Shown one piece after another: positions 3,762 through 59,366 of a stretch of 64,000 bases of DNA. The notes under the pieces were generated by a model. The model saw only the letters and a program-made list of their open reading frames with translations, had not been told where the DNA came from and searched no databases. The translations under genes were made by a program, and so were the position numbers. The stretch is from an uncultured Bacilli bacterium (GTDB lineage Bacteria > Bacillota_I > Bacilli_A > RF39 > UBA660): assembly GCA_947626855.1 (NCBI GenBank), contig CANQTT010000001.1, positions 11,695-75,694 of the forward strand, written 5' to 3'. How positions within the stretch are numbered: position 1 is the stretch's first letter; the number at the start of each line of letters is the position of its first letter.

Positions 3762-3801
3762 AAAACCACCCACAGTATGAATTATTATACCATAACTCCC
3801 T

Positions 3802-4059
3802 TTAGTTTGTATCTAATTTCTCATACTTTTTACGCGTAGACTCTCCTCCACGGATATGTCTTACATTGGTATGATATTTTAAAATGTCTTCCACTTCTAA
3901 ATAAAGGCCTGGATTTAATGTTTCTAGTCTTTCATGTAAATCTTTATGAACTGTACTCTTCGATACTTTAAATACCCTAGAAATTGCTCGTATGGTATCT
4001 TTCGTTTGAATCATATACTTGGCTTCTAGTAGAACTCTTTGATTAATTTTTGAATTCAT
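3802..4059 (-). CDS. spoIIID: Stage III sporulation protein D (SpoIIID), mother-cell HTH transcription factor
   Basis: 85 aa. IRAISRVFKVSKSTVHKDLHERL helix-turn-helix is typical of SpoIIID. Conserved spoIIID-mbl neighbourhood. Confidence 0.8.
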   Translation of the reverse strand: MNSKINQRVLLEAKYMIQTKDTIRAISRVFKVSKSTVHKDLHERLETLNPGLYLEVEDILKYHTNVRHIRGGESTRKKYEKLDTN

Positions 4060-4098
4060 TTATCACCTCTACTACCAATATATGAAAAAAAAAGAGTA

Positions 4099-4719
4099 TT
4101 ATAATGTTTTATCATAATACTCTTCTGGATTTACAGAAATATTATCAATCATTAATTCAAAATATAAGTGAATTCCTAGTTCGCTATTCATAGTAGATTC
4201 CCCTGCTCTACCAATTAACATTCCTTTTGTTACCATATCTCCTTTTTTAACAGCGATATCAGTAATACTTTGATAGACTGTCTGCATATTAGAAGAATGT
4301 TTAATGGTTACTATATTTCCTAATAACGTATCTTCTTTCACATCAACCACTTCTCCATCCATAACTGCTATGGCATCAAAGGTTTCTCCATCCATAGAAT
4401 AACTTACGCCCGTACTCTGAATATAAGTGTCCTCATAATAAATAATAGAATTCTTTTGCTCCTCTGCAGAACCCCTGTAATCGTAATAATTTTGTGCGAT
4501 CTTTACATTGGCATTCGTATAAGGCCTTCCTATCGTAATAGATTGTTCACTAACAACTGGTAATTCAAATTCTTGCAAAATATTGTAAGCATGATTAGGT
4601 CCCATTATCGTTGCTATAGATGCACGATTAAAACTGGTTACTAGAAATCCTATTATTAATAAAATAACACCTGCTCCAATAACTACATAAACAACTGGTT
4701 TTGTTAAATATTCTTTCAT
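4099..4719 (-). CDS. Membrane-anchored degenerate LytM/M23 domain protein, SpoIIQ-like
   Basis: N-terminal TM helix. M23 fold ending GIHLYFEL (HxH degenerated to HxY). The YxxHxGxD motif is replaced by STGVSY (His to Ser) as in B. subtilis SpoIIQ. Located between spoIID and spoIIID. Confidence 0.55.
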   Translation of the reverse strand: MKEYLTKPVVYVVIGAGVILLIIGFLVTSFNRASIATIMGPNHAYNILQEFELPVVSEQSITIGRPYTNANVKIAQNYYDYRGSAEEQKNSIIYYEDTYIQSTGVSYSMDGETFDAIAVMDGEVVDVKEDTLLGNIVTIKHSSNMQTVYQSITDIAVKKGDMVTKGMLIGRAGESTMNSELGIHLYFELMIDNISVNPEEYYDKTL

Positions 4720-4764
4720 TTTCTCACCTCTATTAAAAGTGTGAGCATATTTCTTTTTTTTATA

Positions 4765-5682
4765 CTAATTTTTTATTTTTTTTAATTCTACACCCGTATA
4801 ATAATATTTTAATATCTCATCATAGCTATATCCTTCTTGAGCCATTCCTTCCGCACCATATTGACTCATTCCTACCCCATGACCATAACCTTTGGTAGAA
4901 ACAGTAACAGAATCCTTTTCTACATCAATAGAAAAAGCACTCGATCGAAGTCCAAGTAAAGAAGCGATTTCTTTTCCTGTATAAGTCTTTTCATTGATTT
5001 GAATTTCTTTAATTTTTCCAGCCTTAGTAGAATCGATGACGTTTACGGATATCTGACTGGTATTAGAAAGCTTTAACTTTTTTAAAAAGTCTTCCCTGGT
5101 AAAAATTTCTTCCTCTTGAAAGACAGGAGAAATTTTATCCCATTCGCTTTTAACGCTTCGTAAATACGGTACTTTTGACACAAATACATCTTCACTATTT
5201 TCCGTATATCCTGTACTAGTAGAAAAGAATAATGCTTCGGCTATTTTACCATTATAAACAATGTATTCATAAGAAGTAGAAGCTACTGCATCCACTATCT
5301 TTTGATAATACACATCATACTTATCTTTCCATTTCTGCTTTAGAGTATCCTGGTCTAAATAGACTTGATTTAAAACAGTATCAATAACATCATAATCATC
5401 TTTTCGATTCTTTAAAATTTGATACATCACATAACTTCTAGAAGCTACTGCTTGAGCTTTTAAAGCTTCTTCTTGAAAAGAAGCAGGCATTTCCCCTGCT
5501 ACTACCCCAATAACGTATTGTTCTAAAGGAACTTCGTCAATTTGACCTGTTTTAGATCGTAAGATTCTGACGATTGTATTCCTAGAAAATTGAAAAGTAC
5601 TTTCTTGTATTCGAAAAAAATACCAAATAATAATCGTAGGTATTACTATCATTAGAAAAGAAAAAAGTAGTACTTTTTTCAT
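4765..5682 (-). CDS. spoIID: Stage II sporulation protein D (SpoIID), cortex/septal peptidoglycan lytic transglycosylase
   Basis: SpoIID/LytB domain (YVIGVVAGEMPASF, AQAVASRSY, GYGHGVGMSQYGA). N-terminal signal anchor. Confidence 0.8.
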   Translation of the reverse strand: MKKVLLFSFLMIVIPTIIIWYFFRIQESTFQFSRNTIVRILRSKTGQIDEVPLEQYVIGVVAGEMPASFQEEALKAQAVASRSYVMYQILKNRKDDYDVIDTVLNQVYLDQDTLKQKWKDKYDVYYQKIVDAVASTSYEYIVYNGKIAEALFFSTSTGYTENSEDVFVSKVPYLRSVKSEWDKISPVFQEEEIFTREDFLKKLKLSNTSQISVNVIDSTKAGKIKEIQINEKTYTGKEIASLLGLRSSAFSIDVEKDSVTVSTKGYGHGVGMSQYGAEGMAQEGYSYDEILKYYYTGVELKKIKN

Positions 5683-19471: not shown

Positions 19472-21025
19472 CTACTGATTTAGTCCCTCTAAAAACTTTT
19501 CTTTATCAATACGGGCAAATAAAGGCTCTGGATCATGAACGGCTTTTCCGCTTTCTAAACTACCAAATTGATAGATACTTTCAAAGTCTGTTTTGTCAGT
19601 ATTTAACTGTTGATAAATCTTTTCAGATGTTTCTGGCAAAAAGGAATGAAGTAAAATTGCTCCAATACGAATGGATTCTAATAAATGATAAATTACAGTT
19701 TGTAATCTTTCTATCTTTCCCTCTTTAGCCAATGTCCATGGAGTCGTCTCATCGATGTATTTGTTGCTTCTTCTAAAGATCTCAAAAACAGCATCAATAG
19801 CATCTGCTACCCTTAGATTTTCCATCGCATCTATAGTCTTTGTAATCGCTTTTGATACAGTATCTTTCAAATCCTCATCTAAATCTTCCATCGTTCCCAT
19901 TTCTGGGACTACTCCATCAAAATACTTTTTATCCATAGAAATAGTCCGATTAACTAAATTTCCCAAGATATTAGCAAGATCAGAATTATATCGTTCAATC
20001 ATTAATTCATATGTTAAATTTCCATCATTCGCAAAAGGAATTTCATGAAGAACATAATAACGAACCGCATCTACACCAAATAAATCTGCTAAATCATCTG
20101 CATAAATAGCATTTCCTCTACTTTTGCCAATTTTATCATTGTTGGTAAGAAGCCATGGATGACCAAATACTTTCTTTGGTAAATCTAGTCCTAGTGACCA
20201 TAAAAAACAAGGCCAATAAATAGTATGAAAACGAATAATATCTTTCCCAATCAAGTGAAGATCGGCTGGCCAATATTTTTGAAACTCTTCTGTTGGAGTG
20301 TCTGGATCATAACCGATATTCGTAATATAATTTGTCAAAGCATCTAACCATACATACACAACATGTTTAGGATCAAAATCCACTGGAATCCCCCAACTAA
20401 AAGATGTCCTAGATACACAAAGATCCTGTAATCCTGGTTTAATAAAGTTATTAAGCATCTCATTCTTACGAGATTCTGGCTGAATAAAATCAGGATGACT
20501 TTCTATATACTCCACTAACCGATCTTGATATTTTGATAATTTGAAAAAATAAGCTTCTTCTTTTGCCTCTTTTACTTCTCTTCCACAATCAGGACATTTT
20601 CCATCTACTAATTGAGATTCTGTCCAAAAGGATTCACAAGGAGTACAATATAAGCCCTTATATTCCCCTAAATAAATATCTCCTTGATCATACATTTTCT
20701 TAAATATCTTTTGAACTTCTTCTTCATGTTTTTTATCCGTTGTTCTAACAAATCGATCATAACTCGTATTCATCTTATCCCAAATAGAACGAATGGTTCC
20801 TGCTACCTTATCTACATACTCTTGAGGAGTAACACCTGCCTCTTTGGCTTTTAATTCAATTTTTTCACCATGCTCATCTGTACCTGTTTGAAAATATACA
20901 TCATAGCCCTGTGCTCTTTTAAAACGAGCTATAGCATCGGCTAAAATGACTTCATAAGTATTTCCAATATGAGGTTTTCCAGATGTATAAGCAATGGCTG
21001 TTGAAATATAATATTTTTCTTTCAT
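19472..21025 (-). CDS. metG: Methionyl-tRNA synthetase (short form, no C-terminal tRNA-binding domain)
   Basis: HIGNTYEV (HIGH) and KMSKS-equivalent KIGKSRGN motifs. Zinc knuckle CPDCG. Confidence 0.9.
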   Translation of the reverse strand: MKEKYYISTAIAYTSGKPHIGNTYEVILADAIARFKRAQGYDVYFQTGTDEHGEKIELKAKEAGVTPQEYVDKVAGTIRSIWDKMNTSYDRFVRTTDKKHEEEVQKIFKKMYDQGDIYLGEYKGLYCTPCESFWTESQLVDGKCPDCGREVKEAKEEAYFFKLSKYQDRLVEYIESHPDFIQPESRKNEMLNNFIKPGLQDLCVSRTSFSWGIPVDFDPKHVVYVWLDALTNYITNIGYDPDTPTEEFQKYWPADLHLIGKDIIRFHTIYWPCFLWSLGLDLPKKVFGHPWLLTNNDKIGKSRGNAIYADDLADLFGVDAVRYYVLHEIPFANDGNLTYELMIERYNSDLANILGNLVNRTISMDKKYFDGVVPEMGTMEDLDEDLKDTVSKAITKTIDAMENLRVADAIDAVFEIFRRSNKYIDETTPWTLAKEGKIERLQTVIYHLLESIRIGAILLHSFLPETSEKIYQQLNTDKTDFESIYQFGSLESGKAVHDPEPLFARIDKEKFLEGLNQ

Positions 21026-21510
21026 TTTCTTTCCTCCTTGTTTGTACTTCCAATAGCTCCCTTTCTAACGGAAACAATTTCTTCCTCATCGTCTACCATC
21101 AAAAATTTTACAAAAATTCCTTGTACAATACGATCTCCTTTTTTGATAACAAAGTCTTCTTTTCCTTCATTTTGTAAACTAACCATAGCATGGCCTTCAT
21201 TAGTTTCATTATTGTAAAAATCACTTTCAAAGATTCCTACTTGATTGGTCAGACGTACATTATATTTAAAACCTGTACTACTTCTTACGACAAGCATCAT
21301 CATTTCATCTTCATTCATCATGATTTTAATTCCTGTTGGTATCTTCTTGATTTCTCCTGGAGGAATGACACAGTCAATAGGACTTTTAAAGTCATATCCT
21401 GCACTATATTTCGTATGCCTTTTAGGAAGCTCAAATGCTTCATATTCTTCCCGCGAAGAATTAATATCTTTCTTCCATTGCTTAAAACTAATTTTCTCAA
21501 ATTTTCTCAT
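21022..21510 (-). CDS. dUTP diphosphatase (YncF/YosS-type trimeric dUTPase)
   Basis: SAGYDF, VVRSSTGFK, IFESDFYN, KKGDRIVQ and GAIGST correspond to dUTPase motifs 1-5 of Bacillus YncF-type enzymes. Overlaps the metG start by 4 nt. Confidence 0.65.
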   Translation of the reverse strand: MRKFEKISFKQWKKDINSSREEYEAFELPKRHTKYSAGYDFKSPIDCVIPPGEIKKIPTGIKIMMNEDEMMMLVVRSSTGFKYNVRLTNQVGIFESDFYNNETNEGHAMVSLQNEGKEDFVIKKGDRIVQGIFVKFLMVDDEEEIVSVRKGAIGSTNKEERK

Positions 21511-21527: not shown

Positions 21528-21768
21528 AAAAAAAATCACACCCTGAATAAGGGCGTGATGACGCGGTACCACCTTAATTTTTATATAAATTTCTTTATAT
21601 ACTCTTTCCCTTAACGCGGTTCTTCGTTTTATTCTTTCCCATAAAAAGCTCCAGACCCATTCGAAATAATTCTCATTTACTTGCTTTCACCTAACCAAGC
21701 TCTCTTTAAAATTGTCGTTATTCTTCTTTCCTTCAATGCCTTTGAATGGCTTCATTATAGCATATCTT
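21528..21768 (-). promoter_or_regulatory. T-box riboswitch leader (putative Met specifier) with terminator/antiterminator, upstream of dut-metG
   Basis: Minus strand carries the T-box sequence AATTAAGGTGGTACCGCG and a terminator hairpin ATCACGCCCT-TATTC-AGGGTGTGAT followed by T8. Stem I region has AGAGAG and AGUAAAUGAGAA (candidate AUG specifier). Confidence 0.7.
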
Positions 21769-27844: not shown

Positions 27845-28690
27845 CTAATGATCCTCCTGCTTTAAATATTCCTGATAAACCTCATTTTTTTTCATTCCTC
27901 GTTCTTTGGCAACTTGTTTCATTGCATCCATTTTATTCATTCCTTCTTTTAAATAGATATTGATGTGTTCTTTTAAAGAAAGAGAAGAAAAATCAAATTT
28001 CTCTTTATTTCCCTCTACTATGATAACCATCTCGCCTTTCGCATCCATTATTTGAGGAAGAATTTCGGAAATGGTTCCACGGTAGACCTCTTCATACTTC
28101 TTAGTTATTTCCCGGGAAATACTAATTTGTCTATTTCCCAAAATTTTTTGCATACAAGTTAAGGTTTCTTCTATCCGATGAGGAGCCTCGTAAAAGATTA
28201 AAGTGGCTCTTTCACTCTTCAAAGAAGATAACTCTTTTTCTTTTTTAGAAGTTTTACTATTTAAAAATCCATAAAATAAGAATGGCATAGGAGCAATTCC
28301 TGAAGTAATAAGAGCGGGAACGAGAGCAGTCGCTCCAGGAAGAGCAACTACATGATATCCAGAGGCAATGACAAAACGAGCCAATTCATATCCTGGATCA
28401 CTTATGACTGGTGTTCCTCGATCACTTACCAAGCCAACCATTTTGCCATCCTGCAAATATTCTAGAATTTTTTGATGATTCTTTTCCTCATTGTGTTCAT
28501 GATTGGCAATCATCTTCTTTTTGATACCTAAATAGTTTAATAAAAGTCCAGTTTCTCTTGTATCTTCACAGAATAAAACATCAACACTCTCTAATGTTTT
28601 AACGGTTCGATAGGTTAAATCATCCATATTTCCAATTGGTGTTGGAATTAAATAGAGAGTGGGAGTTCCATCATAACTTTTTTGGCTCAT
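27845..28690 (-). CDS. rsmI: 16S rRNA (cytidine1402-2'-O)-methyltransferase RsmI (YabC-like tetrapyrrole-methylase fold)
   Basis: LYLIPTPIGN start and EDTR motif of the RsmI family. Conserved position next to the yabB-like methyltransferase. Confidence 0.8.
   Translation of the reverse strand: MSQKSYDGTPTLYLIPTPIGNMDDLTYRTVKTLESVDVLFCEDTRETGLLLNYLGIKKKMIANHEHNEEKNHQKILEYLQDGKMVGLVSDRGTPVISDPGYELARFVIASGYHVVALPGATALVPALITSGIAPMPFLFYGFLNSKTSKKEKELSSLKSERATLIFYEAPHRIEETLTCMQKILGNRQISISREITKKYEEVYRGTISEILPQIMDAKGEMVIIVEGNKEKFDFSSLSLKEHINIYLKEGMNKMDAMKQVAKERGMKKNEVYQEYLKQEDH
28117..28130. promoter_or_regulatory. Perfect Noc-binding-site (NBS) palindrome ATTTCCCGGGAAAT inside rsmI
   Basis: 14/14 match to the B. 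subtilis NBS consensus, with palindromic flanks (TATTTCCCGGGAAATA). Only such site seen in the window. An extended GC-palindrome is rare in this AT-rich sequence. Confidence 0.55.
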
Positions 28691-34107: not shown

Positions 34108-34581
34108 TTATACACTTTTTGATTTAGAAATTAAAGTTGAAGAGCGTTTCTTTTGAAAGAACTGCTGAAGCAGATCTAAACATTCTGGACAGTCAACTTT
34201 TTGAATTTCTACGATATGATTATTTTTGGAATTAGATAGTAGTTTATCTATACTCTCCACATAACCAAATTTCGCATTTGCGGCTGCATAAACAATCTTT
34301 TTAATTCTTGCCTGGAGAAGTGCTCCACAGCACATGAGACAAGGTTCTAACGTCACATATAAAGTACAATCATTGAGTCTCCAGTCTCCTATCTTTTTGC
34401 ATGCCTGTTCGATTGCTAAAATTTCAGCATGAGCAGTGGCACATTTATTATGTTCTTTTAGATTATGTGCACGAGCAATAATTTCATCATTACATACAAT
34501 TACTGCTCCTACCGGGATTTCTTCCATATCAAAAGACTTTTTTGCTTCTTTTAAAGCTTCTTCCATATATTTATTTTTCAT
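34108..34581 (-). CDS. tadA: tRNA-specific adenosine deaminase TadA
   Basis: Deaminase zinc motifs HAEILAI and PCLMCCGAL. Start set to the ATG behind RBS GGAGAG; the longer ORF-track extension would run through a parS palindrome. Confidence 0.8.
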   Translation of the reverse strand: MKNKYMEEALKEAKKSFDMEEIPVGAVIVCNDEIIARAHNLKEHNKCATAHAEILAIEQACKKIGDWRLNDCTLYVTLEPCLMCCGALLQARIKKIVYAAANAKFGYVESIDKLLSNSKNNHIVEIQKVDCPECLDLLQQFFQKKRSSTLISKSKSV

Positions 34582-34592
34582 AATACTCTCCA

Positions 34593-34610
34593 ATGTTTCA
34601 CGTGAAACAT
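34593..34610. other. parS: parS centromere-like site (ATGTTTCACGTGAAACAT, perfect 18-bp palindrome)
   Basis: Core TGTTTCACGTGAAACA matches the ParB/Spo0J consensus TGTTNCACGTGAAACA 16/16. Lies between the SRP RNA 3' end and the tadA RBS. Confidence 0.85.
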
Positions 34611-34611
34611 A

Positions 34612-34691
34612 CAAAAAAAGCACACACATTCATTGACTCTTAAGGATGCTACCTTCCGGTCCTGACCTGATTCGAGTTTAAATGTTGTGCT
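34612..34691 (-). ncRNA. ffs: Small (4.5S-type) signal recognition particle RNA
   Basis: Minus strand reads AGCACAACAUU...AAUCAGGUCAGGACCGGAAGGUAGCAUCC...AAUGUGUGUGCU+U7. It contains the near-universal domain IV sequence CAGGUCAGGNCCGGAAGGNAGCA with a GGAA tetraloop. The 5' and 3' ends pair (AGCAC/GUGCU, ACAUU/AAUGU) into a single long hairpin ending in a U-tract. Upstream TTGCAT-17-TATATT. Confidence 0.65.
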
Positions 34692-34736
34692 GATATATAA
34701 TATATCTTATTTTAGAAAAAAATGCAATAAACTTTT

Positions 34737-34754
34737 ATGTTTCACGTGGAACAT
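34737..34754. other. parS: parS site (ATGTTTCACGTGGAACAT; reverse complement is the B. subtilis consensus TGTTCCACGTGAAACA)
   Basis: 16/16 match to the canonical B. subtilis parS on the opposite strand. It directly abuts the predicted -35 of the SRP RNA promoter. Confidence 0.85.
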
Positions 34755-34771
34755 ATTTTTTTCTTTCTGAA

Positions 34772-34789
34772 ATGTTTCACGTGAAACAT
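34772..34789. other. parS: parS site (ATGTTTCACGTGAAACAT), embedded in a 27-bp extended palindrome, 18 nt past the gyrA stop
   Basis: Identical to the first site. Extended arms CTGAAATGTTTCACGTGAAACATTCAG. Centre is 35 bp from the neighbouring parS. Confidence 0.85.
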
Positions 34790-34806
34790 TCAGAAAAAGA
34801 GAATGA

Positions 34807-37428
34807 TTATGACTCACTCTCTTTATCAACAGTTTCAGTTATTAAATCTTCCTCTTGGGAAATATTTCCCTCTTCATTATTTCCCATATTAGTTTGGGAA
34901 ATATCTTCTTTTTTGAGAAGAGCAACTGTACTTACTTTTTGATTTTCTTTTAAATTAATTAATTTAACACCTTGAGCTACTCTACCTGTTGAACTAACTT
35001 GTTCTAATGGTAAACGAATGATCATTCCACTATCCGTAATAATCATTAAATCTTCGTTGCCTGTTACTAACTTGAAATCAACGATTGTACCATTCTTTTC
35101 GGTAATATTGAGTGCTTTAACACCTTTACTTCCACGATGAGTCATTCTATATTCTTCTATTTTCGTCTGTTTTCCATAACCATTTTCTGTAATAACGAGA
35201 ACAGATTCATTTTCCAAGGCTACTTCAATACCTACAGCAATACCATCGCCTACTTCGATACCTCGAACACCAGATGCGGTTCTTCCCATGATTCTTACTT
35301 CTGATTCTTTAAAACGAATCATTCGACCATTTGAACTTGCTATTAATATTTCATTTGTTCCATCGGTCTTCTTAACATCTAATAACTCATCATCCTCTTT
35401 TAAACTAATAGCGATTTTACCACTATTACGAATATTATCAAATTCACTAATATTGGTACGTTTAACTAATCCACTTCGAGTACAGAAGACTAAATACTTA
35501 TTTTTCTCTTCTCTTTCGATTTTCAACATCGATTTAACGACTTCTTCTTTTTCTAATGGTAGTAAATTGATAATTGGTAATCCTTTAGATTGTCTACTAA
35601 AGGCTGGTACCTCATATCCTTTCATACGATAAACTCTACCTTTATTCGTAAAGAATAACAAATAGTCATGGGTAGTTACAGAAACTAATTTTTCCACAAG
35701 GTCTTCTTCATTAGTTGTCATACCTTTAATACCTACTCCACCTCTATTTTGAGTCTTATAAGTATCACTAGTAATTCTCTTAATATATCCTTTATTGGTT
35801 AAAGTTACGATAATATCTTCTACTGGAATTAAAGATTCATCATCAATATAATCAATCGCAGTCATATCAATAGAAGTTCTTCTCTCATCAGAATACTTAT
35901 TCTTAATTTCTAACATTTCTTTCTTAATGATATCAAGAACTTTTTGTTCACTTGCTAAAATACTCTTTAATTCTTCAATCAATTTCAATAATTCATTTAA
36001 TTCTTCTTCTATTTTAGCACGCTCTAAACCAGTTAATCTCTTTAAACGCAACTCCAAAATACTATCAGCTTGAATTTGGCTTAAACCAAAACGACTCATT
36101 AAAGCATCTCTTGCTTCTTCATCCGTTTGAGATTCTCTAATAATCCGAATGACTTCATCAATATGATCTAAAGCAATCTTATAACCTTCCAAAATATGGA
36201 CACGATTTTCAGATTTTTTCAAATCAAATCTGGTTCTTCGAATAATTACTTCTTTTTGATGATCAATATACTTTGAAAGAATGGCTTTTAATGGTAAAGT
36301 TTTTGGAGTTAGACCATCTAACATTAAGAAAATAATTCCATAATTTGTTTGAAAAGCGGTGTGTTTATATAAATTGTTTAGAACAACTTGTGGATTTGCT
36401 TCTTTCTTAAGTGTGATGGTTATTTTTACCCCATCCTTCAAATCGGTGTGATAATCCGCAATTCCATCAATAATTTTATTATGAACAAGTTCAGCTACTT
36501 TATTTTTTAATTCCATGGTATTAATTCCATAAGGAACTTCTGTTACAACAATACAATTATGACCATTGATTTCTTCTATAGATGCTCTACTACGAATAGT
36601 AATTGTGCCACGACCTGTTTCATACGCTTGACGAATTCCAGAATTTCCTAAAATGATACCGCCTGTTGGAAAATCTGGTCCTTTAATATATTTCATCAAC
36701 TCTAATGTATCAATATCAGGATTATCAATATAGGCAATACATCCATCGATTACTTCTCCTAAATTGTGAGGAGGAATATTGGTTGCCATACCTACGGCAA
36801 TTCCCATTGTTCCATTTACTAATATGTTAGGAAATCTAGATGGTAAAACTTTTGGTTCTTTAACCGTTTCATCAAAGTTTGGATCAAAATCAACCGTATC
36901 CTTATTAATATCTCTCAATAATTCAAGGGAAATCTTGGATAATCTGGATTCTGTATAACGCATAGCTGCTGCTCCATCACCCTCGATATTACCAAAATTT
37001 CCATGTCCATCAATTAATAAATATCTTTGATTAAAATCTTGAGCCATACGAACCATGGCTTCATAAATGGAAGAATCTCCATGGGGATGATAATGTCCCA
37101 TTACATATCCAACCGTTGTTGCTGATTTTCGATGTGGTTTATCTGGAGTATATCCAGATTCATACATGGACCATAAAATTCTACGATGAACAGGTTTTAA
37201 TCCATCTCTTAAATCTGGTAAAGCACGAGAAGCAATAACACTCATAGAATATTCCAAAAAGGAAGTTTCTACCTCGTTAACGATGTTATTTTCAGCTAAT
37301 CGATCTCTTTCATGAAAATATCCACTAAAATGTGTATTATCTACTAAAGCAGAGTTCTCTTCCACTTCTTCATTTTCAAGATTTTCCTCCGTTGTTTGCT
37401 CTTCTTCTATATTTTTTTCTTCTTCCAT
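34807..37428 (-). CDS. gyrA: DNA gyrase subunit A
   Basis: Active-site region AAMRYTE (catalytic Tyr), QRDR-like segment, and C-terminal beta-pinwheel repeats. gyrB-gyrA adjacency. Confidence 0.95.
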
Positions 37429-42433: not shown

Positions 42434-43786
42434 TTAATGAATTTTGTTGATAATTTTTTGAATTTCATTATTTAATGCTTCATCTTTTAAAATTTCATTT
42501 TTTATTTTTTCAACAGCGTGCATAACAGTGGTGTGATTTTTGCCGCCAAATTCAATTCCTATTTTAGTAAGGTTCTCTTCCAAATAAATTCTGCAGATAT
42601 ACATAGCAATCATCCTTGGAATAGCAATATTATTGGTTTTCTTTTTACTTTTTAAATCTTCAGCACTAATATTGTAATTTTCACTGACTAACTGGATAAC
42701 TTGATCGATTTTATTCTTTGCCACAAAAGAAATTACAAAGAAATCTTTTAATGCTTCCACCGCTAAATCAAGAGTAATATCTGATCCGTTCATAATGGTT
42801 GCATAGGCATAGACTCTCGTAACAGCTCCTTCTAATTTTCGAATATCCCCTACGCAGTTACTAGCAATATATTCTTTTACTTCTTCTGGGAAGGTATTGT
42901 CTTGTCCATGGAGCTCTATTTTCTTATTAATAATATTCATTCGAAGTTCAAATTCTGGTGGTAAAATATCAATTTGAAGTCCCCAATTAAATCTTGTCTT
43001 TAGTCTTTCCTCTAATTTTTTGATATCTTCTGGGGATCTATCAGAGGATATAATGATTTGTTTATTATTATTATATAATTCATTAAAGGTATTGAAGAAT
43101 TCTTGTTGAGCAGAAGTAGCTCCCACTAAATTGTGAATATCATCAATAATTAAAACATCCACATCGCGATATTTATTTTTAAATTGTTTAATAGATTCCA
43201 TATTGTTTTCATTCGCACTTTTTCTACAAATGTCAACAAAATCAGAAACAAAAGTATCGCAAGGAATATATAATACTTTCATTTTTTTATTATTTTCTAC
43301 AATAAAATTTCCAATGGCATGCATAAGATGTGTTTTTCCTAATCCACTAGATCCATAGATAAATAACGGATTATACATTTTTCCTGGTTGTTCTGCCACT
43401 GCAAGTGCGGAAGTAGCGGCAAATTTATTACTGTTACCAATTACGAAGTTATCGAATCGATAGCGATTATCAAGGTTACTTTCAAAATTACTAGCAGGAA
43501 TTCCAATTTCATCCGTATTTAAAACAATCTTATTTTCTAATTCTTCTTCTGTATAGAATTCAAAATTAAAGTTCGTACCAGTAACTTCTGTAAATTTCTC
43601 AATAATGTCGTCAATATAATTTTCTTTTAAATTCTTTTTATGGATATGGGAAGGTACTAAAACTTTAGCGATCCCCTCTTCTAATCCAATTAATTTTGTT
43701 TCCGAAAACCAAGTTTCATAAGAAATTTCTGATAAGACTTCCTTAATTTTTAACAGAAATAAATTCCACATATTCTCTAAATCCAC
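42434..43786 (-). CDS. dnaA: Chromosomal replication initiator DnaA
   Basis: AAA+ Walker A GSSGLGKTHL, box VII, and C-terminal DNA-binding domain with HTTVMHA. Confidence 0.95.
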   Translation of the reverse strand: MDLENMWNLFLLKIKEVLSEISYETWFSETKLIGLEEGIAKVLVPSHIHKKNLKENYIDDIIEKFTEVTGTNFNFEFYTEEELENKIVLNTDEIGIPASNFESNLDNRYRFDNFVIGNSNKFAATSALAVAEQPGKMYNPLFIYGSSGLGKTHLMHAIGNFIVENNKKMKVLYIPCDTFVSDFVDICRKSANENNMESIKQFKNKYRDVDVLIIDDIHNLVGATSAQQEFFNTFNELYNNNKQIIISSDRSPEDIKKLEERLKTRFNWGLQIDILPPEFELRMNIINKKIELHGQDNTFPEEVKEYIASNCVGDIRKLEGAVTRVYAYATIMNGSDITLDLAVEALKDFFVISFVAKNKIDQVIQLVSENYNISAEDLKSKKKTNNIAIPRMIAMYICRIYLEENLTKIGIEFGGKNHTTVMHAVEKIKNEILKDEALNNEIQKIINKIH

Positions 43787-48872: not shown

Positions 48873-49622
48873 ATGGAAAATCTTGAAAATCAAGTAGCTA
48901 ATCAAACACAACCAAAATTAGAGCCTGTTGATTCAGAGACAAAAAAACAAGCAATGAAATTATTTAATAGCTTGCTTTTAGATATTGATAAAAATTTTGA
49001 AGAATTAGCGTGGTGGATTCAAATTATTGATGATACCCAAAAAGAAGTTGAAAGCGAAATGAATGCTTATGAAACTGCTAATCCATTGATGGATGTTGAT
49101 TCTGCAGAATATAAAAAATATCTTCAATTCCAAGCTGATAGGAGTTTTCTTAGTCGTATAAAAGATATGATTTATGATAGAGTTTCTGAGAAAGTAACGG
49201 AAGAACAATATGATCAGTTTTTGCAATTAGTAGAGACACGTCCTGATATGTCTCATAATCAAGAAGTGCCGCAACATTTAGAATCAGAACTTTCAGCGGA
49301 GATGGAACTTCCAGATGTAGAGGTAAGTAGTAATCAAATAGAAGTTCCAGAAGTACATAGTGATTCAGTAGTAAGAACTCCACTTACCGATACTAATGCC
49401 CCTGCTACAGCACAAATTTCAGAATCAAAATTTCAAGATGAGGAATTGTCAGCGTTGTTCAAGCAAGGAATTGTGCACGAAGGCTCAGGTTACAGGGATA
49501 AAGATGGCATCCTTTGGATTAGTGAGGAAGAGTATCTAAATTTTTTAAGGGAACAGAATGATTCTTTCGAAAATGTTGAACTAGATGAATATGGAAATGG
49601 TTCTACAGGTAAAAGAATTTAG
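48873..49622 (+). CDS. Acidic hypothetical protein (249 aa) inserted between mnmE and mnmG
   Basis: ORF with its own spacing and an upstream GAGGGAAG RBS. No recognisable domain. Very acidic. Confidence 0.4.
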   Translation: MENLENQVANQTQPKLEPVDSETKKQAMKLFNSLLLDIDKNFEELAWWIQIIDDTQKEVESEMNAYETANPLMDVDSAEYKKYLQFQADRSFLSRIKDMIYDRVSEKVTEEQYDQFLQLVETRPDMSHNQEVPQHLESELSAEMELPDVEVSSNQIEVPEVHSDSVVRTPLTDTNAPATAQISESKFQDEELSALFKQGIVHEGSGYRDKDGILWISEEEYLNFLREQNDSFENVELDEYGNGSTGKRI

Positions 49623-52300: not shown

Positions 52301-52400
52301 TTTCTTTATAAATTTTTCAAAAAAATATTTCCCAATACTTCTTGTATTATTTCCCAAAGTATATTATAATCTTTTTATAAGATGGAAAAGAGGCAGATCT

Positions 52401-53975
52401 ATGGATGAGACAAGAGCTAAAGTTGTAGATTTAGACTTAAATGATATCCTACCTAACCGCTTTCAACCTCGTATTAAATTTAATGAAGATGCTATTATTG
52501 AGCTATCGGAATCTATCAAGGAACATGGTGTTATTCAGCCAATTATTGTAAGACCAATTGGTGATAAATACGAGATTATTGCTGGTGAGCGAAGATATAA
52601 GGCAAGTATTTTAGCTGGAAGAGATACCATTCCAGCGATTATTTCTAGTTTTAATGATAAAGATAGTGCAGAGGTAGCCTTAATTGAAAATGTACAACGG
52701 AGAGATTTAACACCTATTGAAGAAGCTGTATCTTATAAAAAAATACTAGATATGAATTATTTAACGCAAGAACAATTAGCTGTTAAGTTAGGAAAAAGTC
52801 AGTCAGCTATTGCCAATAAGATTCGCCTTTTAAATTTATGTGATGAGGTTCAAGAAGCCTTATTAGAAGAAAAAATTTCGGAAAGACATGCTAGATCCTT
52901 ATTAAAATTAAAAGAAACAGAAAAACAAAAAAGTATGTTAAAAAGAATTATTGAAGAACGTTTAACTGTAAGAAAGACAGAGGAGGAAATAGAAAAAATG
53001 AATACCTTTATAACAAATCCAATTGATGATGTTACCACGAATAATGATAATCCTACTATGAATAGTCAAAATCCTAGTGGACAAACAGAATCAAAACCTT
53101 TAGATATGCAATCTCTATTGATGAGTGAAACCCAGAAACAAGCAGCTGCTGTAGATGCAGCAATGGCTCAACCGGTTGTTCAACCACAACCTTCTGTAAT
53201 GTCAGAGCCAGTTTCCGTATCACAACCATCCGTGAATCCAACTCCAGTGGAGACTACACAATCCCCTCTTCCTGCTGTTGATTTAGTTTCTTCTGGTATG
53301 CCGTCTACTCCAATTGTGGAGACTCCAACAATAGCTTCTCCTTCTATGATTGCTCCAGATTCTCCATCAACAACACCAATGCCTATGTTCACAGTTCCAC
53401 AGATTGATCCTCAAAATTCTCAACCAAGTACAGTAGCAGAAGAAAAGCCTTTCAATATGGCGGATTTGTTGGCAACTCCTGCTCAAAGAAGTACAACAGA
53501 GACTTCTTCTACTCCTTTTGTAGCTCCTACTTCTGTAGGAAGTACGCAAACTATATCAACCCCTGCTGCTCCAGCACCTCAGTCTTCTTCTTTTGGAGCA
53601 CAAACCATTCCAGCTACTCCTATTTTGGAACAAACTCTTCCAACATCCTTTATGCCTGACCCAGTAAGAGCGGAAGATAATAATTCTGAAGGAGATACAG
53701 TAGTAGCTATTTCTAGTACACCATCAACACCTAATGAATCTAGAAGTGAGGAAAAAGTTGATATTCAACCAATTATTATAACGGATTATAATAAGCAGTA
53801 TGATCCAGTATTGCCAGCAAGTGCACAACCTGTTGAAAAGGTTGATTTTAAGCAAATTATTAATTTGATAAGAGAATTAAATAATACCATTGAGAAATGT
53901 GGATATACGATTGAGACTGAGGAATACGATTTGGAGAAAGAGTATCAGGTTGTTTTTAAGATTAATAAAGAATAA
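52401..53975 (+). CDS. noc: ParB/Noc-family DNA-binding protein (Noc-like), with a long Pro/Ser/Thr/Gln-rich extension and a small C-terminal domain
   Basis: ParB N-domain ILPNRFQPR and GERRYKA. HTH LTQEQLAVKLGKSQSAIANKIRLL. IPAII, EEKISERHARSLLKLK and LTVRKTEEEIEKM resemble B. subtilis Noc (IPAII, EKKITERHARALIPLK, LNVKQTEDRVVKM) more than Spo0J. Gene position after rsmG matches noc. About 320 aa of low-complexity P/S/T/Q sequence follow. Confidence 0.7.
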   Translation: MDETRAKVVDLDLNDILPNRFQPRIKFNEDAIIELSESIKEHGVIQPIIVRPIGDKYEIIAGERRYKASILAGRDTIPAIISSFNDKDSAEVALIENVQRRDLTPIEEAVSYKKILDMNYLTQEQLAVKLGKSQSAIANKIRLLNLCDEVQEALLEEKISERHARSLLKLKETEKQKSMLKRIIEERLTVRKTEEEIEKMNTFITNPIDDVTTNNDNPTMNSQNPSGQTESKPLDMQSLLMSETQKQAAAVDAAMAQPVVQPQPSVMSEPVSVSQPSVNPTPVETTQSPLPAVDLVSSGMPSTPIVETPTIASPSMIAPDSPSTTPMPMFTVPQIDPQNSQPSTVAEEKPFNMADLLATPAQRSTTETSSTPFVAPTSVGSTQTISTPAAPAPQSSSFGAQTIPATPILEQTLPTSFMPDPVRAEDNNSEGDTVVAISSTPSTPNESRSEEKVDIQPIIITDYNKQYDPVLPASAQPVEKVDFKQIINLIRELNNTIEKCGYTIETEEYDLEKEYQVVFKINKE

Positions 53976-55081: not shown

Positions 55082-55366
55082 TTATTTTAAATTTCTATTT
55101 TTTTCATATGTAAAATTAGTTGATTTTATGAAACTAGAATTCGCTTTGTCTTTATTAGAATTTCTATCTAACGTATTTTCAGAATATGGTTTTACAAAGA
55201 AAGCTCTTTTGATTTCATTAATCTCTTCTGCCCGAAATTTCACTAAATCTCCCACATTTACGGAATTATCAATATCACTATCCAAAAACAGATAGCTATC
55301 TTCTGGTGTGACGATTGTACCACTAATCCCATTATATTCTTTTACTTTTCCAATACTAAATGACAT
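55082..55366 (-). CDS. Degenerate cold-shock-domain (OB-fold) like small protein, translationally coupled to the upstream 1336-aa ORF
   Basis: GKVKEYNGISGTIVTPEDSYLFLDSDI...VGDLVKF parallels the CspB pattern GKVKWFNSEKGFGFIEVEG..DVFVHFSAI...EGQAVSF, but the RNP1/RNP2 aromatics are replaced. Its start overlaps the stop of the upstream gene by 11 nt. Confidence 0.45.
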   Translation of the reverse strand: MSFSIGKVKEYNGISGTIVTPEDSYLFLDSDIDNSVNVGDLVKFRAEEINEIKRAFFVKPYSENTLDRNSNKDKANSSFIKSTNFTYEKNRNLK

Positions 55367-58300
55367 AATTTGTATTCACTCCTTTTTCTTGTACATAGAC
55401 TTGAACTAATTTTCTAGCTTCCTCTAATTCTCTTTTAGCCTCTGGATCTGTTGTAATTATTTTTTCATGGATTACTCCTATTGCATCCACATAAAGATAC
55501 CAATCATGATTTGCAAATCCATATCTTACTTCCTTTTCATCCAGAATTGGAAATTCTAAATATTCATAGTTTTCACCAGCCATCAATCTTTGAACAGAAT
55601 CAATTCGTCTTATATAAGATACTATTTCTTTCATTGAATGAACCTCTACAACCTTATCTCGAGCTGGTAAATAAGTAGGAAGATTTCGCTTATCAAAATT
55701 GATTGGAACTAATGCATTATCATCTCTAGAAGTTGCAAGAACAATTGCATATCTGCCAACATCACAATAAGAAAGAGTTAATCCTTCTCGGACATTAGAG
55801 ATACCTAAGTTTTGCGTTGGTAAGCCGTCTGCAGCATATTTATCATGCAAAACAACATTATCGATAGGCATCCATCCATCCCGCTCGTAATCCTCCTGAC
55901 TCCTTTCAATCATGAGTTGAGCAATTCGTTTACAAGCTTCTACAATATCTTTATCTGAGTATAAATAAGGATTACAGGATTTTCTAAGTTCATTTAAGAA
56001 AACAGTATTTCCATTTCGAAAACCACTTACCCTTGAAATATATTCTCCTGTCTCTGGATCTTGAAACCGAATATGGAACCCATTTTTATCTTCTAAACAA
56101 AATCTAAAAAGTCCTTCCCCAAATCCCCCAATTCGCATACAAGCTCCTGTTCTCTCTCCATGCGTAAGATTACATGGGTTAGTAAAATTTCCAACAATAA
56201 CTTGTAATTTCTTTGTCTTTGTTACATCAAGTGTTTGATTAAAGGTTGGAACCGTTACTTCCATTCTTTCATAATTCCTTCTTGTCCATGTAACAGCCTC
56301 TCTTAATCTTATATCTGGATTCATTCTAGAACTATTTTCTTGAGGATCAGCCTTAATAATTCTTGCATCTTCACTTCCTAATATTAAAGAGTAGACATTA
56401 GATGTCGCCGCATAAATCTCTGCTTGCTGAATGATATTAGTAAGACTAAAAGAAACATCATTAGAACCGTTTTGCAATCTTTTCCTTTCAGCACTATAAA
56501 TTTCTGAATAGTAGGAAATAAAAGCGGCAAGATTGTATATATCAGTTTCAATACGAACTGGTGGTTGAGCCATAAAATTTATTAGAACATCTGGAATCGC
56601 TAATGATTTGCTTAAACTTTTTTTCAAACTTTCATACAAAAGCTTTGCTTCTTTATCATTTTTATCAAAAGATAAAATCCTTTCCAAATGTTTCAAATTT
56701 ATTCCTCTTAATATTCTAAAAAAATTAATAGAAGATTCTGGAACATCATATTCCCATTTTACATCATGCATTTGAGAATAATATTGTTGTCTTTCTTCTT
56801 CTGACATTTGCGATATTTTATTTTTCAAAAAACTACCAATAATTTTTTGATGTTTTTGCATGATAAGATTTCTCTCTAAATCATCTGTTCTTCTACGAGT
56901 AACAAAATAATCGATGCAATCCATAGCCAAATCCAAACTAAGTCCTTGACTCATTAATTCTTGTTCTAACTCTTCTTGATAAGTCTGCATTTCTATTAGA
57001 AATTTAGGTAATTTACTTCTAGCATCCATACTATCGATATGACTAGATAAAGACAAATCGGATGCCATTTGTTCCATGCCATGAACTTCTCGATAATTTT
57101 CACGTTCTACCCTTATATAATAGTCCATTATAAAATGTAGCATATCCAAATAGAATTCTCTATCTTCTGTATTAGCTTTTATCTTGCTCGTGATCATTCG
57201 CAATAATTGAAAAGGATTGGAATATTCTCTTGCAATTTCTGCATAAGCACCGTTTTTTTCTTCCATAAATTTTTTATAAAATTTACTATCTAAAAGAAAA
57301 ATTTCTGGTCCCCCAAGCTTTTTAAACTCTTTATTCAATTCTTCATATTGTGCCTTTAAACTTTTTAAATGTTCTGATAAAGATTCATTATATGGTTCAA
57401 GCTGAGCTTGTTCGGATAGTGTCTTTATCTGTTCCCGTAGTGACTCCATTTGATTCGATAGAACAATAACAGAATCAAAAGATTGGTCAATGGAGAGGAT
57501 TAAATTGTGAAAAGAATTAACAATTTCTGGATGTTGTCTTGGAAAACCATATTGTATGACTGAATCATAAGCATTTCGTAATTGATCAATCGTCATTTTT
57601 CGTTGAGAAAATAAATCTAATAAGCGATTGAATTGATTATTATCATACTTAAGAATAGCGGCAAGATTCTCATCTTCTAAATAATGAATAATTCTTAAAC
57701 CAAATCGTTCTTTCAAAGCATCTAGATGAGCAGCATTATACCCTCTTGTTTCTACAAAATATTCTTTTAATATTTTGTATACTTCTTCAGAGCAAACAAA
57801 AGAATGATTATCATCTGAATAAATGACTTCAAATAGTTGATTCCTACTAATTGGAAAAGAAAGAAGTGTTTTCAGAATAATTGGTTTTTTCCAAATAGAT
57901 TTTCCTGTTTTAAGACATTCAGAAATACATTCAAGATAGGTATAGTTTTGTTTAATAACTTCCACAAGTTGTTTTTGTGATTCTTCACTTAATTGTTCAA
58001 ACATATCTTGTGAAGAAAGACTACATAATCTAAAAAAGAGATCATACTTTTTTTTATTTATTAGTTTTTCTGAAAATAATGGATCTATTTTTAATATCAG
58101 TTCTATAATTTTTTCTTGGAATTCATCATTTCGAATTTCTATGACATGATTTAAAAATAATTCACTGTCAAAATTAAAGCTAATTTGACTAATGTCTAAG
58201 ATAGAATTTAAATTGCTAAAAAGGAAATTATTCAAATAATCGGGGCAAGCTTTCATTATGTAATATGAATTTCCATTCAAAATTTCTCTAAAAACTAAGT

Positions 58301-59366
58301 TGATAACTTTTGTTCTAGTTTGCATGGGCACGTCCCAAAACAAAATACTATCGCTGCTGCCACTTGTAACAAAAGCTTCCAAAAAGGTATCGTCTTGTAA
58401 TAAATCATAAGCATTATCTGGAAAAATTCGAAATGCTTTACCGTCTTTCATTTCTGAAAAAATAGTATTATAATCTTCACTATTTTTCTCGATACTGATA
58501 TCATCACTCATTATGTTCAAAGCTAAATCCAAGCGTCCTACTCTTTTGAAATGTTCAATGATTTGAGTTTGTTGCTCTTTCGTTAAAATATGGCAAAAAG
58601 CATTAATCAAAATATCTCCGAAAGTAGTTTCATTCAATATTCGATTTACCAAATAGGACACATATTGTGGATCAATATCAGATTGCTCATCAGCTATCAT
58701 TAAAAGAGTTTGAGTGGGCAAGCGATTAGCAGTGCCGTCATCGATGAGTGCGGCAAGCTTTTTTTTGCGATAATGGTTAAAAAGCAAACTATTAATACAA
58801 TTAGAATGATATTGATGAAAAGGAAAGTTATCTAAAATAAAATCAATATCCGCATCCTTTGACAAATGACAATCCAAGGTAAAAATTTCAAATTTTCCTT
58901 CTTTTAACAATCTTTTAATCAAGTTACTTGATAACCAAATTTTTTCATTAGTTTTTGAATTCCTAATAAGTTTTTGATAAGCTTCTTCCATTAAGGATTG
59001 GTAGATTTCTAGTGGAAAAAGAGATTTTATTTCCCCTTCAAAATTTTCACCAAAATCAAAACAATTATTTATGTATTCCCTAGCATATAAAATACCTATC
59101 TCTAAATCAATGAATTGGCTATTTTCATCAAAAAAAAGAGAATTAAAATTTATATCATAAGTATAAATTATTTTTTTTAGTTCTTCCCATAATTGGTTCC
59201 AGTTCACTTTTTTTTCTATCGCTAAATGTTTAAAAAATGTCAATGCAGCTTCATCATTTTTTAATAGATACAATTCGTTGGGGGTTAAAGAAAAATCCCC
59301 TCTTTGCATTTTTTCTTTTAAATTTTGGACATTTTCTTCATATGTTTCTATGATTTCTTTGTTCAC
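55356..59366 (-). CDS. Large cytoplasmic hypothetical protein (1336 aa) with no recognisable domain
   Basis: Continuous ORF with a GTG start behind GGTGG. No signal peptide or TM. Central coiled-coil-like segment. C-terminal about 330 aa are Gly/Asp-richer and look globular, with Cys (TGACMRIGG) and later His/Asp residues. Confidence 0.6.
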   Translation of the reverse strand: MNKEIIETYEENVQNLKEKMQRGDFSLTPNELYLLKNDEAALTFFKHLAIEKKVNWNQLWEELKKIIYTYDINFNSLFFDENSQFIDLEIGILYAREYINNCFDFGENFEGEIKSLFPLEIYQSLMEEAYQKLIRNSKTNEKIWLSSNLIKRLLKEGKFEIFTLDCHLSKDADIDFILDNFPFHQYHSNCINSLLFNHYRKKKLAALIDDGTANRLPTQTLLMIADEQSDIDPQYVSYLVNRILNETTFGDILINAFCHILTKEQQTQIIEHFKRVGRLDLALNIMSDDISIEKNSEDYNTIFSEMKDGKAFRIFPDNAYDLLQDDTFLEAFVTSGSSDSILFWDVPMQTRTKVINLVFREILNGNSYYIMKACPDYLNNFLFSNLNSILDISQISFNFDSELFLNHVIEIRNDEFQEKIIELILKIDPLFSEKLINKKKYDLFFRLCSLSSQDMFEQLSEESQKQLVEVIKQNYTYLECISECLKTGKSIWKKPIILKTLLSFPISRNQLFEVIYSDDNHSFVCSEEVYKILKEYFVETRGYNAAHLDALKERFGLRIIHYLEDENLAAILKYDNNQFNRLLDLFSQRKMTIDQLRNAYDSVIQYGFPRQHPEIVNSFHNLILSIDQSFDSVIVLSNQMESLREQIKTLSEQAQLEPYNESLSEHLKSLKAQYEELNKEFKKLGGPEIFLLDSKFYKKFMEEKNGAYAEIAREYSNPFQLLRMITSKIKANTEDREFYLDMLHFIMDYYIRVERENYREVHGMEQMASDLSLSSHIDSMDARSKLPKFLIEMQTYQEELEQELMSQGLSLDLAMDCIDYFVTRRRTDDLERNLIMQKHQKIIGSFLKNKISQMSEEERQQYYSQMHDVKWEYDVPESSINFFRILRGINLKHLERILSFDKNDKEAKLLYESLKKSLSKSLAIPDVLINFMAQPPVRIETDIYNLAAFISYYSEIYSAERKRLQNGSNDVSFSLTNIIQQAEIYAATSNVYSLILGSEDARIIKADPQENSSRMNPDIRLREAVTWTRRNYERMEVTVPTFNQTLDVTKTKKLQVIVGNFTNPCNLTHGERTGACMRIGGFGEGLFRFCLEDKNGFHIRFQDPETGEYISRVSGFRNGNTVFLNELRKSCNPYLYSDKDIVEACKRIAQLMIERSQEDYERDGWMPIDNVVLHDKYAADGLPTQNLGISNVREGLTLSYCDVGRYAIVLATSRDDNALVPINFDKRNLPTYLPARDKVVEVHSMKEIVSYIRRIDSVQRLMAGENYEYLEFPILDEKEVRYGFANHDWYLYVDAIGVIHEKIITTDPEAKRELEEARKLVQVYVQEKGVNTNYVI

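Follow-up and report, generated by a model that had tools for sequence, protein, structure and literature searches.

A Noc orthologue with no membrane-targeting helix and a long motif-bearing linker in an uncultured Bacilli lineage

The window analysed here, a 64,000-nucleotide stretch of DNA from an uncultured Bacilli bacterium (lineage RF39; UBA660; assembly GCA_947626855.1, contig CANQTT010000001.1, positions 11,695 to 75,694), contains a gene directly after rsmG, the noc-like gene, whose 524-amino-acid product belongs to the ParB family of DNA-binding proteins. We class this protein as an orthologue of the nucleoid occlusion factor Noc by descent but not as a canonical Noc, because it has no N-terminal membrane helix and falls below the NCBI cut-off for the family. 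From its sequence and that of its relatives, we think it likely that the protein is a clamp of the Noc lineage that has lost the membrane helix, carries a long tether bearing short motifs, binds Noc-binding site (NBS) DNA and represses its own promoter.

Profile, sequence and fold comparisons all place the protein closer to Noc than to the partition protein Spo0J. Over its positions 1-196 the TIGR04285 nucleoid_noc model matches the protein with 287.5 bits, whereas the generic parB_part model reaches 180 bits, and when residues 211-466 are removed in silico the whole Noc model is aligned (1-255 of 255) with 301 bits. Compared with the sequences of solved structures, the protein scores 208, 207 and 191 bits with Noc and 174, 171 and 165 bits with Spo0J/ParB. 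The top Foldseek match of its predicted model is Noc 7nfu (E 5e-22), and the modelled DNA-binding domain superposes on the Noc-NBS co-crystal 6y93 with a root-mean-square deviation of 1.1-1.7 Å at 52-55% identity. Gene order is decisive for Noc descent. The noc-like gene directly follows rsmG both in the window and in each of the 22 related loci that reach its 5' end, and in two loci only, L021 and L022, the most distant recovered, soj and spo0J stand downstream, in the order mnmE-mnmG-rsmG-(noc-like gene)-soj-spo0J-mscS-abgT-ychF. The neighbouring Spo0J of L022 is canonical, with the N-terminus KKRALGRGLESLF (LGRGL type), GKSRSH and TMGHAR motifs, and R173 and G201 in the numbering of the Caulobacter protein. 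Since these deeper relatives keep the rsmG-noc-soj-spo0J order, the gene is the Noc orthologue and not Spo0J, in agreement with a sequence-only reading of the window that had seen in the product a paralogue of ParB resembling Noc, encoded where noc is expected. An LG(R/K)GL-type ParA-stimulating N-terminal peptide is not present in the noc-like protein.

The family considered here comprises at least 167 full-length relatives, and the residue conservation figures given below come from a 67-member alignment. The N-terminal 200 or so residues had been read as a ParB/Noc CTPase followed by a helix-turn-helix (HTH), and this is borne out by adjoining Pfam matches (ParB_N, residues 8-99; HTH_ParB, residues 102-201) and by an AlphaFold2 model, computed from the 67-sequence family alignment, in which residues 4-205 are folded with a predicted local distance difference test (pLDDT) score mostly above 90. 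The two stretches quoted in that reading, GERRYKA (residues 62-68) and ISERHARSLLKLK, are both found in the protein as written. P18, R20, R24, G62, E63, R64, R65, E96, N97, Q99 and R100 are invariant and Q22 is kept in at least 90% of members; judged by this alignment, the motif residues for cytidine triphosphate (CTP) are intact across the family.

Current models of Noc combine DNA binding with simultaneous, direct binding to the membrane through a CTP-gated N-terminal helix (PMC4331003, PMC8429893). The Noc N-terminus is extremely conserved, the helix is predicted in every Noc homologue examined and it is required for function (Adams et al. 2015, PMC4331003); the CTP-switch model is likewise built on it (Jalal et al. 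2021, PMC8429893). The noc-like protein begins at about residue 23 of Bacillus subtilis Noc, its residue 2 aligning to Noc residue 24, so that by this alignment both the 10-residue amphipathic membrane-targeting helix, whose absence had already been pointed out, and helix α2 are missing. All 167 full-length relatives, including the L022 protein encoded beside soj-spo0J, have just 14-27, mostly acidic, residues ahead of PNRFQPR, and the loss of the helix is therefore not a slip of annotation. The start codon of the window's gene is itself secure: a Shine-Dalgarno sequence is well placed before the ATG, inspection of the upstream reading frame found no further in-frame ATG, GTG or TTG, the upstream region overlaps a promoter-like element, and the N-terminus MDETRAKVVDLDLNDILPNRFQPR is kept in relatives with different upstream DNA. 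No membrane-targeting helix was identified elsewhere in the protein by eye, a formal amphipathic-helix scan not forming part of that inspection. The linker described below is net acidic, and the short, acidic motifs in it resemble neither known amphipathic targeting sequences nor a basic amphipathic membrane anchor.

Four positions (Caulobacter 173, 179, 184 and 201) switch specificity from the RTAG of ParB to the QKKR of Noc (Jalal et al. 2020, PMC7383237). Q173 reads base 1 of the NBS and R201 reads base 6, one lysine at 179 or 184 being sufficient and permissive, and R173 and G201 are described as absolutely conserved in ParB orthologues (PMC7383237). The equivalent residues of the noc-like protein are Q134, K140, N145 and R162; Q134 and K140 are invariant, R162 is kept in at least 90% of aligned members, and among the 167 full-length relatives 137 have QKNR and 8 have QKKR. 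The sequence-only reading had proposed alignment of these residues with those of Noc and Spo0J, holding that Spo0J residues would count against it; what the alignment returned was Q/K/N/R. On this basis the protein is predicted to bind NBS-type DNA and not parS.

Sites of the corresponding type are present. A perfect 16-bp NBS, TATTTCCCGGGAAATA, lies inside rsmI. This site, earlier placed at 28117-28130, is real, although those figures were 10 bp too high and its 14-mer core occupies 28107-28120; we estimate the chance expectation of the 14-mer in 64 kb of 31% GC DNA at about 2e-4. A further half-site, TATTTCCCAAA, stands 10 bp past it (28132-28142). L022 has a perfect NBS between rsmG and the noc-like gene, and related loci totalling 0.49 Mb contain a further three sites, each with one mismatch, which brings those with no more than one mismatch to five in all. 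In the window TATTTCCC is enriched, with 12 observed against 1.8 expected and 0 of 100 shuffles reaching 12, and half-sites also cluster, in unusual arrangements, at the 3' end of gyrA.

The C-terminal end of the protein is of the Noc type. Residues 483-522 are modelled as helix-strand-strand with a pLDDT of about 93, a result reproduced in a second run on the C-terminus alone, and the top match of the isolated C-terminus in the NCBIfam library is positions 213-255 of the Noc model (E 0.003). A hidden Markov model (HMM) built from 211 distinct family C-termini scores 24 bits against the C-terminal 42 residues of B. subtilis Noc, where the best of 2000 shuffles reaches 9.5 bits, and gives no match to the C-terminal domains of the B. 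subtilis and L022 Spo0J proteins. Of the B. subtilis Noc sequence used in these comparisons, the N-terminal 224 residues agree with PDB 7ol9. A fold search with the model of the isolated C-terminal domain, which is too small for the purpose, gave no significant match in the PDB, and when the family was compared with B. subtilis Noc by hhalign, the N-terminal part alone was matched. We know of no solved structure of a Noc C-terminal domain. The small C-terminal domain noted in the sequence-only reading is thus present, but it is the ordinary domain of Noc and not a novel appendage.

Because the C-terminal domain is the normal one, the low-complexity region represents sequence inserted in the linker that joins it to the DNA-binding domain. 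The Pro/Ser/Thr/Gln-rich stretch reported earlier as an extension of about 320 residues therefore exists, as an internal insertion of about 250 residues in place of a terminal extension. Residues 209-455 are modelled at pLDDT values of about 40-50 and form no secondary structure, and the composition of residues 205-455 is 15% P, 14% S, 13% T, 8% A, 8% V and 7% Q, with 27 acidic (D+E) against 7 basic (K+R) residues. Noc of B. subtilis has about 30 residues at this position. The linker of the relatives ranges from about 100 to 600 residues, giving total lengths of 359-885 residues with a median of 560. We considered a tandem-repeat origin and rejected it for the window's gene, in which there are no DNA repeats of note; some relatives do have repeated units.

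Several short motifs recur in the linker of family members that are only about 45-60% identical overall. Those kept in the window's protein are listed in Table 1; the family patterns include EEKP-h-x-h-x-DLLA and LPxxF, and a motif NPGFVDVDKI that the window's protein has lost. The strongest conservation adjoins the C-terminal domain, where the family segment PIIITDYxKQYDPxxP, represented in the window by PIIITDYNKQYDPVLP, is near-invariant: P457 and P469 are invariant, I458, I459, D462, Y463, K465, Q466, Y467, D468 and P472 are kept in at least 90% of aligned members, and the core [TSAN]-D-Y-x-[KNYA]-Q-Y-[DE]-P is present in 133 of the 167 members.

The DNA ahead of the gene is also conserved. 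Across the window and L001-L022, two direct NBS half-sites 22-23 bp apart, about 40-95 bp upstream of the start codon, are kept in 22 of the 23 loci, and in relatives the arrangement can be written tATTTCCCaaaa-N9-TTGTAtt-ATTTCCCaaa-N3-TATTATAAT, with a 17-bp spacer and a perfect or near-perfect -10 element. At least two ATTTCCC/GGGAAAT half-sites lie within about 130 bp upstream of the gene in 22 of 23 loci, although protein identity drops to about 45%; in some loci there is also a complete NBS or one more half-site, in inverted orientation. As this 7-mer, identical to the NBS half-site, holds fixed positions in otherwise divergent intergenic DNA, binding by the gene's own product is the best explanation, and the arrangement suggests that the gene is autoregulated through its promoter half-sites.

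We propose that the noc-like protein works in the manner of Noc and ParB: its dimers would nucleate on NBS-type DNA (ATTTCCC followed directly by GGGAAAT), bind CTP and form a closed clamp that slides. With so long a tether separating the DNA-binding from the dimerisation domain, the clamp would have a larger lumen, and the tether could offer its short motifs to one or more partners that would connect the protein to the envelope or divisome in place of direct lipid binding. Occupancy of the two half-sites in its promoter would repress transcription of the gene. A further step, which we put forward tentatively and regard as somewhat doubtful, is that the linker motifs replace the lipid-binding helix by docking the DNA-loaded, CTP-closed clamp on a membrane-anchored or divisome protein (for example a MinD/ParA-type ATPase, FtsA, SepF or FtsZ), so that nucleoid occlusion would be protein-mediated, the work of a ParB-family clamp with a giant flexible lumen that would also set its own level through the half-site operators in its promoter.

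Several points weigh against this proposal. What we say of DNA specificity, CTP binding and autoregulation is deduced from sequence, and the partners of the linker motifs are purely postulated. Position 184 is N and not the K usual in Noc, the NCBI Noc cut-off of 315 bits is reached neither by the native protein nor by the version from which the linker was removed, and the NBS search covered about 0.5 Mb of related DNA only. A consensus promoter scan of the window did not call the conserved upstream element, in which the -35 is weak (3 of 6 matches), and the promoter half-sites could belong to another regulator. Given the findings of Adams et al. (2015), a helix-less protein may have no nucleoid-occlusion activity at all.

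That last possibility leads to the main rival explanation, in which the protein is a Noc-derived clamp that has given up nucleoid occlusion and acts mainly as a repressor or nucleoid organiser of the KorB kind, the linker being an entropic spacer and its motifs residual conservation. KorB of plasmid RK2 (PDB 8qa8, 8qa9 and 1r71) is a CTP-dependent sliding clamp and transcriptional repressor with operator sites in promoters, and so provides a precedent for promoter repression by a ParB-family CTP clamp; the loss of a helix required for Noc function and the operator-like half-sites conserved in the gene's own promoter point the same way. The likeness to KorB extends to the ParB-fold clamp, at about 30% identity, and possibly to the promoter half-sites, a resemblance that would be one of functional analogy only: KorB is plasmid-borne, has a different operator and works with KorA, whereas no KorA-like partner is seen with the noc-like gene. 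Against this explanation stands the full palindromic NBS inside rsmI, away from the promoter. Several of the linker motifs, moreover, are kept across members that share about 45-50% identity, the one before the C-terminal domain being near-invariant, which argues for selected interactions in preference to a passive spacer. We judge this rival unlikely, but not so unlikely as the two that follow.

Were the protein an ordinary partition ParB (Spo0J) that binds the three parS sites of the window, with its ParA encoded elsewhere, the ParB_N and HTH_ParB architecture, the perfect parS sites near the replication origin (oriC) and the failure to find another ParB in the 64 kb would all be accounted for. 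R173 and G201 are, however, replaced by Q and R throughout the family, the ParA-stimulating peptide is lacking, Noc outscores Spo0J whether HMMs, sequences or folds are compared, the C-terminal domain is that of Noc and unlike that of Spo0J, and L021 and L022 have a separate canonical soj-spo0J immediately downstream. This alternative is already largely refuted, and we hold it to be very improbable. The chance that the long low-complexity region is an artefact of annotation or assembly (a frameshifted, fused or decaying gene) is next to negligible. Many database entries of the family are fragments, and the composition of the linker is unlike the rest of the genome, as such an artefact would have it; but an identical 524-residue open reading frame (ORF) is found on independent contigs, the N-terminal and C-terminal domains stand in one frame in the full-length relatives while linker lengths vary, the C-terminal domain shows strong conservation and a confidently predicted fold, and a promoter-like region and a terminator belong to the gene itself. 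The artefact is refuted by a reading frame that the whole family keeps. A search with the C-terminal 75 residues returned 215 clusters at 50% identity with E at most 0.001 (96 below 1e-10), which make up the clade; every member with the N-domain is at least 383 residues long, and the shorter entries are fragments that have no N-domain.

Set against known systems, the protein thus remains closest to Noc as studied in B. subtilis and Geobacillus thermoleovorans (TIGR04285; PDB 7nfu, 7ng0, 7ol9 and 6y93). The two share the ParB CTP-domain and HTH, at 50-54% identity over about 200 residues, the specificity residues Q173, K179 and R201, the Noc-type C-terminal domain, and a position after rsmG that is ancestrally before soj-spo0J; the perfect 16-bp NBS in the window's genome is of the B. 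subtilis type. The differences are that Noc has the amphipathic helix and helix α2, which the noc-like protein does not, and K at position 184 where the latter has N, that the noc-like family has a disordered, motif-bearing linker of 100-600 residues, and that its score is below the NCBI family cut-off. The NBS half-sites in the promoter may be a further difference. Spo0J/ParB (PDB 6sdk, 1vz0, 4umk and 6t1f) has the same superfamily fold and CTP motifs at 39-48% identity, but differs in R173/G201, the ParA-stimulating peptide and a Spo0J-like C-terminal domain, none of which the noc-like protein has, and a separate Spo0J is encoded beside the noc-like gene in L021 and L022. SlmA of Escherichia coli is a nucleoid occlusion factor of the TetR family; its fold is unrelated to that of the noc-like protein, any likeness would be a possible functional analogy, and nothing in our data ties the linker motifs to FtsZ. 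We found no literature on a helix-less or long-linker Noc. What is new here are the half-sites in the gene's own promoter and the conserved short linker motifs.

The host group consists of abundant, uncultured gut bacteria with reduced genomes, and the clade can be viewed as a natural experiment on what nucleoid occlusion can dispense with. It has dropped the helix and gained the tether, and has kept the NBS specificity residues, the CTP motifs, the C-terminal domain, the gene position and the NBS sites. A whole group of these bacteria must then couple chromosome position to the envelope or to division in some other way, and a protein-mediated route from the chromosome to the divisome may be indicated. 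The findings also raise the questions of how linker length, and with it the clamp lumen, affects sliding clamps of the ParB family, and of whether chromosomal Noc proteins autoregulate through half-sites.

The sequence-only reading had drawn attention to the absence of soj and spo0J after the noc-like gene, and of a ParA partner. This holds for the whole window: tblastn over the 64 kb with B. subtilis Soj and Spo0J queries found no ParA and no second ParB, and gave the noc-like gene alone. ORFs of about 250-280 residues at 16.7-19.1 kb were considered as ParA/ParB candidates and proved to encode KsgA (rRNA adenine dimethylase family), a G5-domain protein and TatD. The missing ParA partner is not odd in itself, since Noc needs no ParA. 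In relatives other than L021 and L022, a search with the L022 Spo0J found soj-spo0J after UDG-tilS-ftsH. The window has a UDG-tilS-ftsH block on the minus strand (16.7-11.3 kb; ftsH 11263-13260) that is followed by genes for a flippase and a VWA protein and not by soj-spo0J, while in L013 (5314-10383) tilS-ftsH comes directly after the noc-like gene. As soj-spo0J is beside the gene in L021 and L022 and elsewhere in other relatives, its local absence from the window reflects rearrangement around oriC. The UDG-tilS-ftsH (11263-16756 in the window) and soj-spo0J-mscS-abgT-ychF blocks shift relative to noc and oriC in L013, L021 and L028-L031, and the clade as a whole indicates repeated rearrangement around the origin.

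The three parS sites reported in the window all proved perfect on scanning (6 strand-matches against 0.14 expected); none was found in the related loci. Three perfect parS sites in a genome of 31% GC lead us to expect that this genome has spo0J, and a separate, canonical Spo0J encoded elsewhere is presumed to serve them. Together with the gyrA half-sites, the parS cluster (34594-34903 overall), about 9 kb from oriC, may form a shared loading zone for ParB and Noc. The parS sites flank a gene for the signal recognition particle (SRP) RNA (Rfam RF00169, 34603-34701, minus strand). The listed start of the tadA ORF, 34629, overlaps the SRP RNA, and translation of tadA probably begins instead at the ATG at 34581.

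Table 1. Coordinates of the noc-like gene, its domains and motifs, and the associated DNA sites in the window
Feature	Position	Strand	Basis or remark
Perfect 16-bp NBS TATTTCCCGGGAAATA, inside rsmI	28106-28121		Sequence; 14-mer core 28107-28120
Three perfect 16-bp parS sites	34594-34609, 34738-34753, 34773-34788		Between gyrA and tadA, within 200 bp
NBS half-site cluster (GGGAAATATTTCCC; ATTTCCC-N10-GGGAAAT)	34854-34903		3' end of gyrA, beside parS cluster
NBS half-site 1 TATTTCCCAAT, just upstream of putative -35	52326-52336	+	Sequence; position kept in 22 of 23 loci
Putative promoter TTGTAT (52342-52347)-N17-TATAAT (52365-52370)	52342-52370	+	Inferred from conservation
NBS half-site 2 TATTTCCCAAA, filling promoter spacer	52348-52358	+	Sequence; conserved in relatives
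Shine-Dalgarno AAGAGG	52388-52393	+	Sequence; 8 nt before noc-like ATG
noc-like gene, 524 residues, monocistronic	52401-53975	+	Unbroken ORF; Pfam ParB_N and HTH_ParB; TIGR04285 nucleoid_noc
ParB N-terminal (CTP-binding) domain, residues 8-99	52422-52697	+	Pfam ParB_N E 1e-32; pLDDT >90
CTP-domain motifs FQPR; GERRYKA (residues 62-68); ENVQRRDL	52461-52472; 52584-52604; 52686-52709	+	
HTH DNA-binding domain, residues 102-201	52704-53003	+	Pfam HTH_ParB E 4e-34
Specificity residues Q134, K140, N145; R162	52791-52838; 52878-52895	+	Alignment; equivalent to Caulobacter 173, 179, 184; 201
Disordered acidic P/S/T/A/V/Q-rich linker, residues 205-455	53013-53765	+	Composition; pLDDT about 40-50, no secondary structure
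Motif KPLDMQSLL (family K-x-h-[DN]-h-x-x-L-L)	53094-53120	+	Conservation; local pLDDT bump at 232-240
Motif MPSTPIVE (family P-x-T-P-I-[IV]-E; two copies in window's protein)	53298-53321	+	Conservation
Motif EEKPFNMADLLA	53439-53474	+	Conservation in family
Motif IPATPILEQTLPTSF (second TPI-x-E motif, then LPxxF)	53607-53651	+	Conservation in family
Near-universal motif PIIITDYNKQYDPVLP, directly before C-terminal domain	53769-53816	+	Conservation
Noc-type C-terminal (dimerisation) domain, residues 480-524	53838-53972	+	NCBIfam, family C-terminal domain HMM, predicted fold
Terminator-like hairpin and T-run, 3' of noc-like stop codon	53974-53994	+	Sequence scan

We place the replication origin near 44 kb of the window, from the change of sign in GC skew and from dnaA (42434-43786, minus strand) facing the plus-strand genes rnpA-yidC-jag. 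Away from the origin the plus strand then reads pta, mnmE, an ORF of 249 residues, mnmG, rsmG and the noc-like gene; the window as a whole has about 31% GC. The 524-residue protein encoded on independent ENA metagenome contigs is identical to that of the window. MreB, SpoIID, an M23 peptidase and a FemAB-family protein are encoded in the window (2757-5682, and 59441-60775, the latter equivalent to L026 17087-18373), which makes a peptidoglycan wall probable and a rod shape possible in this organism, despite the Tenericutes or Mycoplasmatota labels on related metagenome-assembled genomes (MAGs). With this toolkit for wall and rod shape, the coupling of division to chromosome position is plausible biology here.

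The 249-residue ORF between mnmE and mnmG (48873-49622, plus strand) is acidic and has no Pfam or NCBIfam match; tblastn finds it in the window and in no related locus, and it is also called as a gene on two contigs from the same organism, L026 and L027. Converging on the noc-like gene from the minus strand, with a metallophosphatase gene in between, is a gene for a protein of 1336 residues with no Pfam match (55356-59366), the 3' end of which is overlapped by an ORF of 94 residues (55082-55366, minus strand); both are called as genes on ENA contigs. Also on the minus strand, a dUTPase-like ORF (21022-21510) overlaps the start of metG (19472-21025) and is preceded by a T-box leader (21546-21745) whose Rfam score, 93 bits, only just reaches the gathering score; such an ORF would be an unusual first gene for a T-box-controlled operon. 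Finally, MAGs labelled Bacteroidaceae, Muribaculaceae or Roseburia contain Bacilli-type mnmG-rsmG-noc contigs (L003, L006, L008, L019, L020 and L022), some of them with mnmE as well; these labels are probably errors of binning or labelling.

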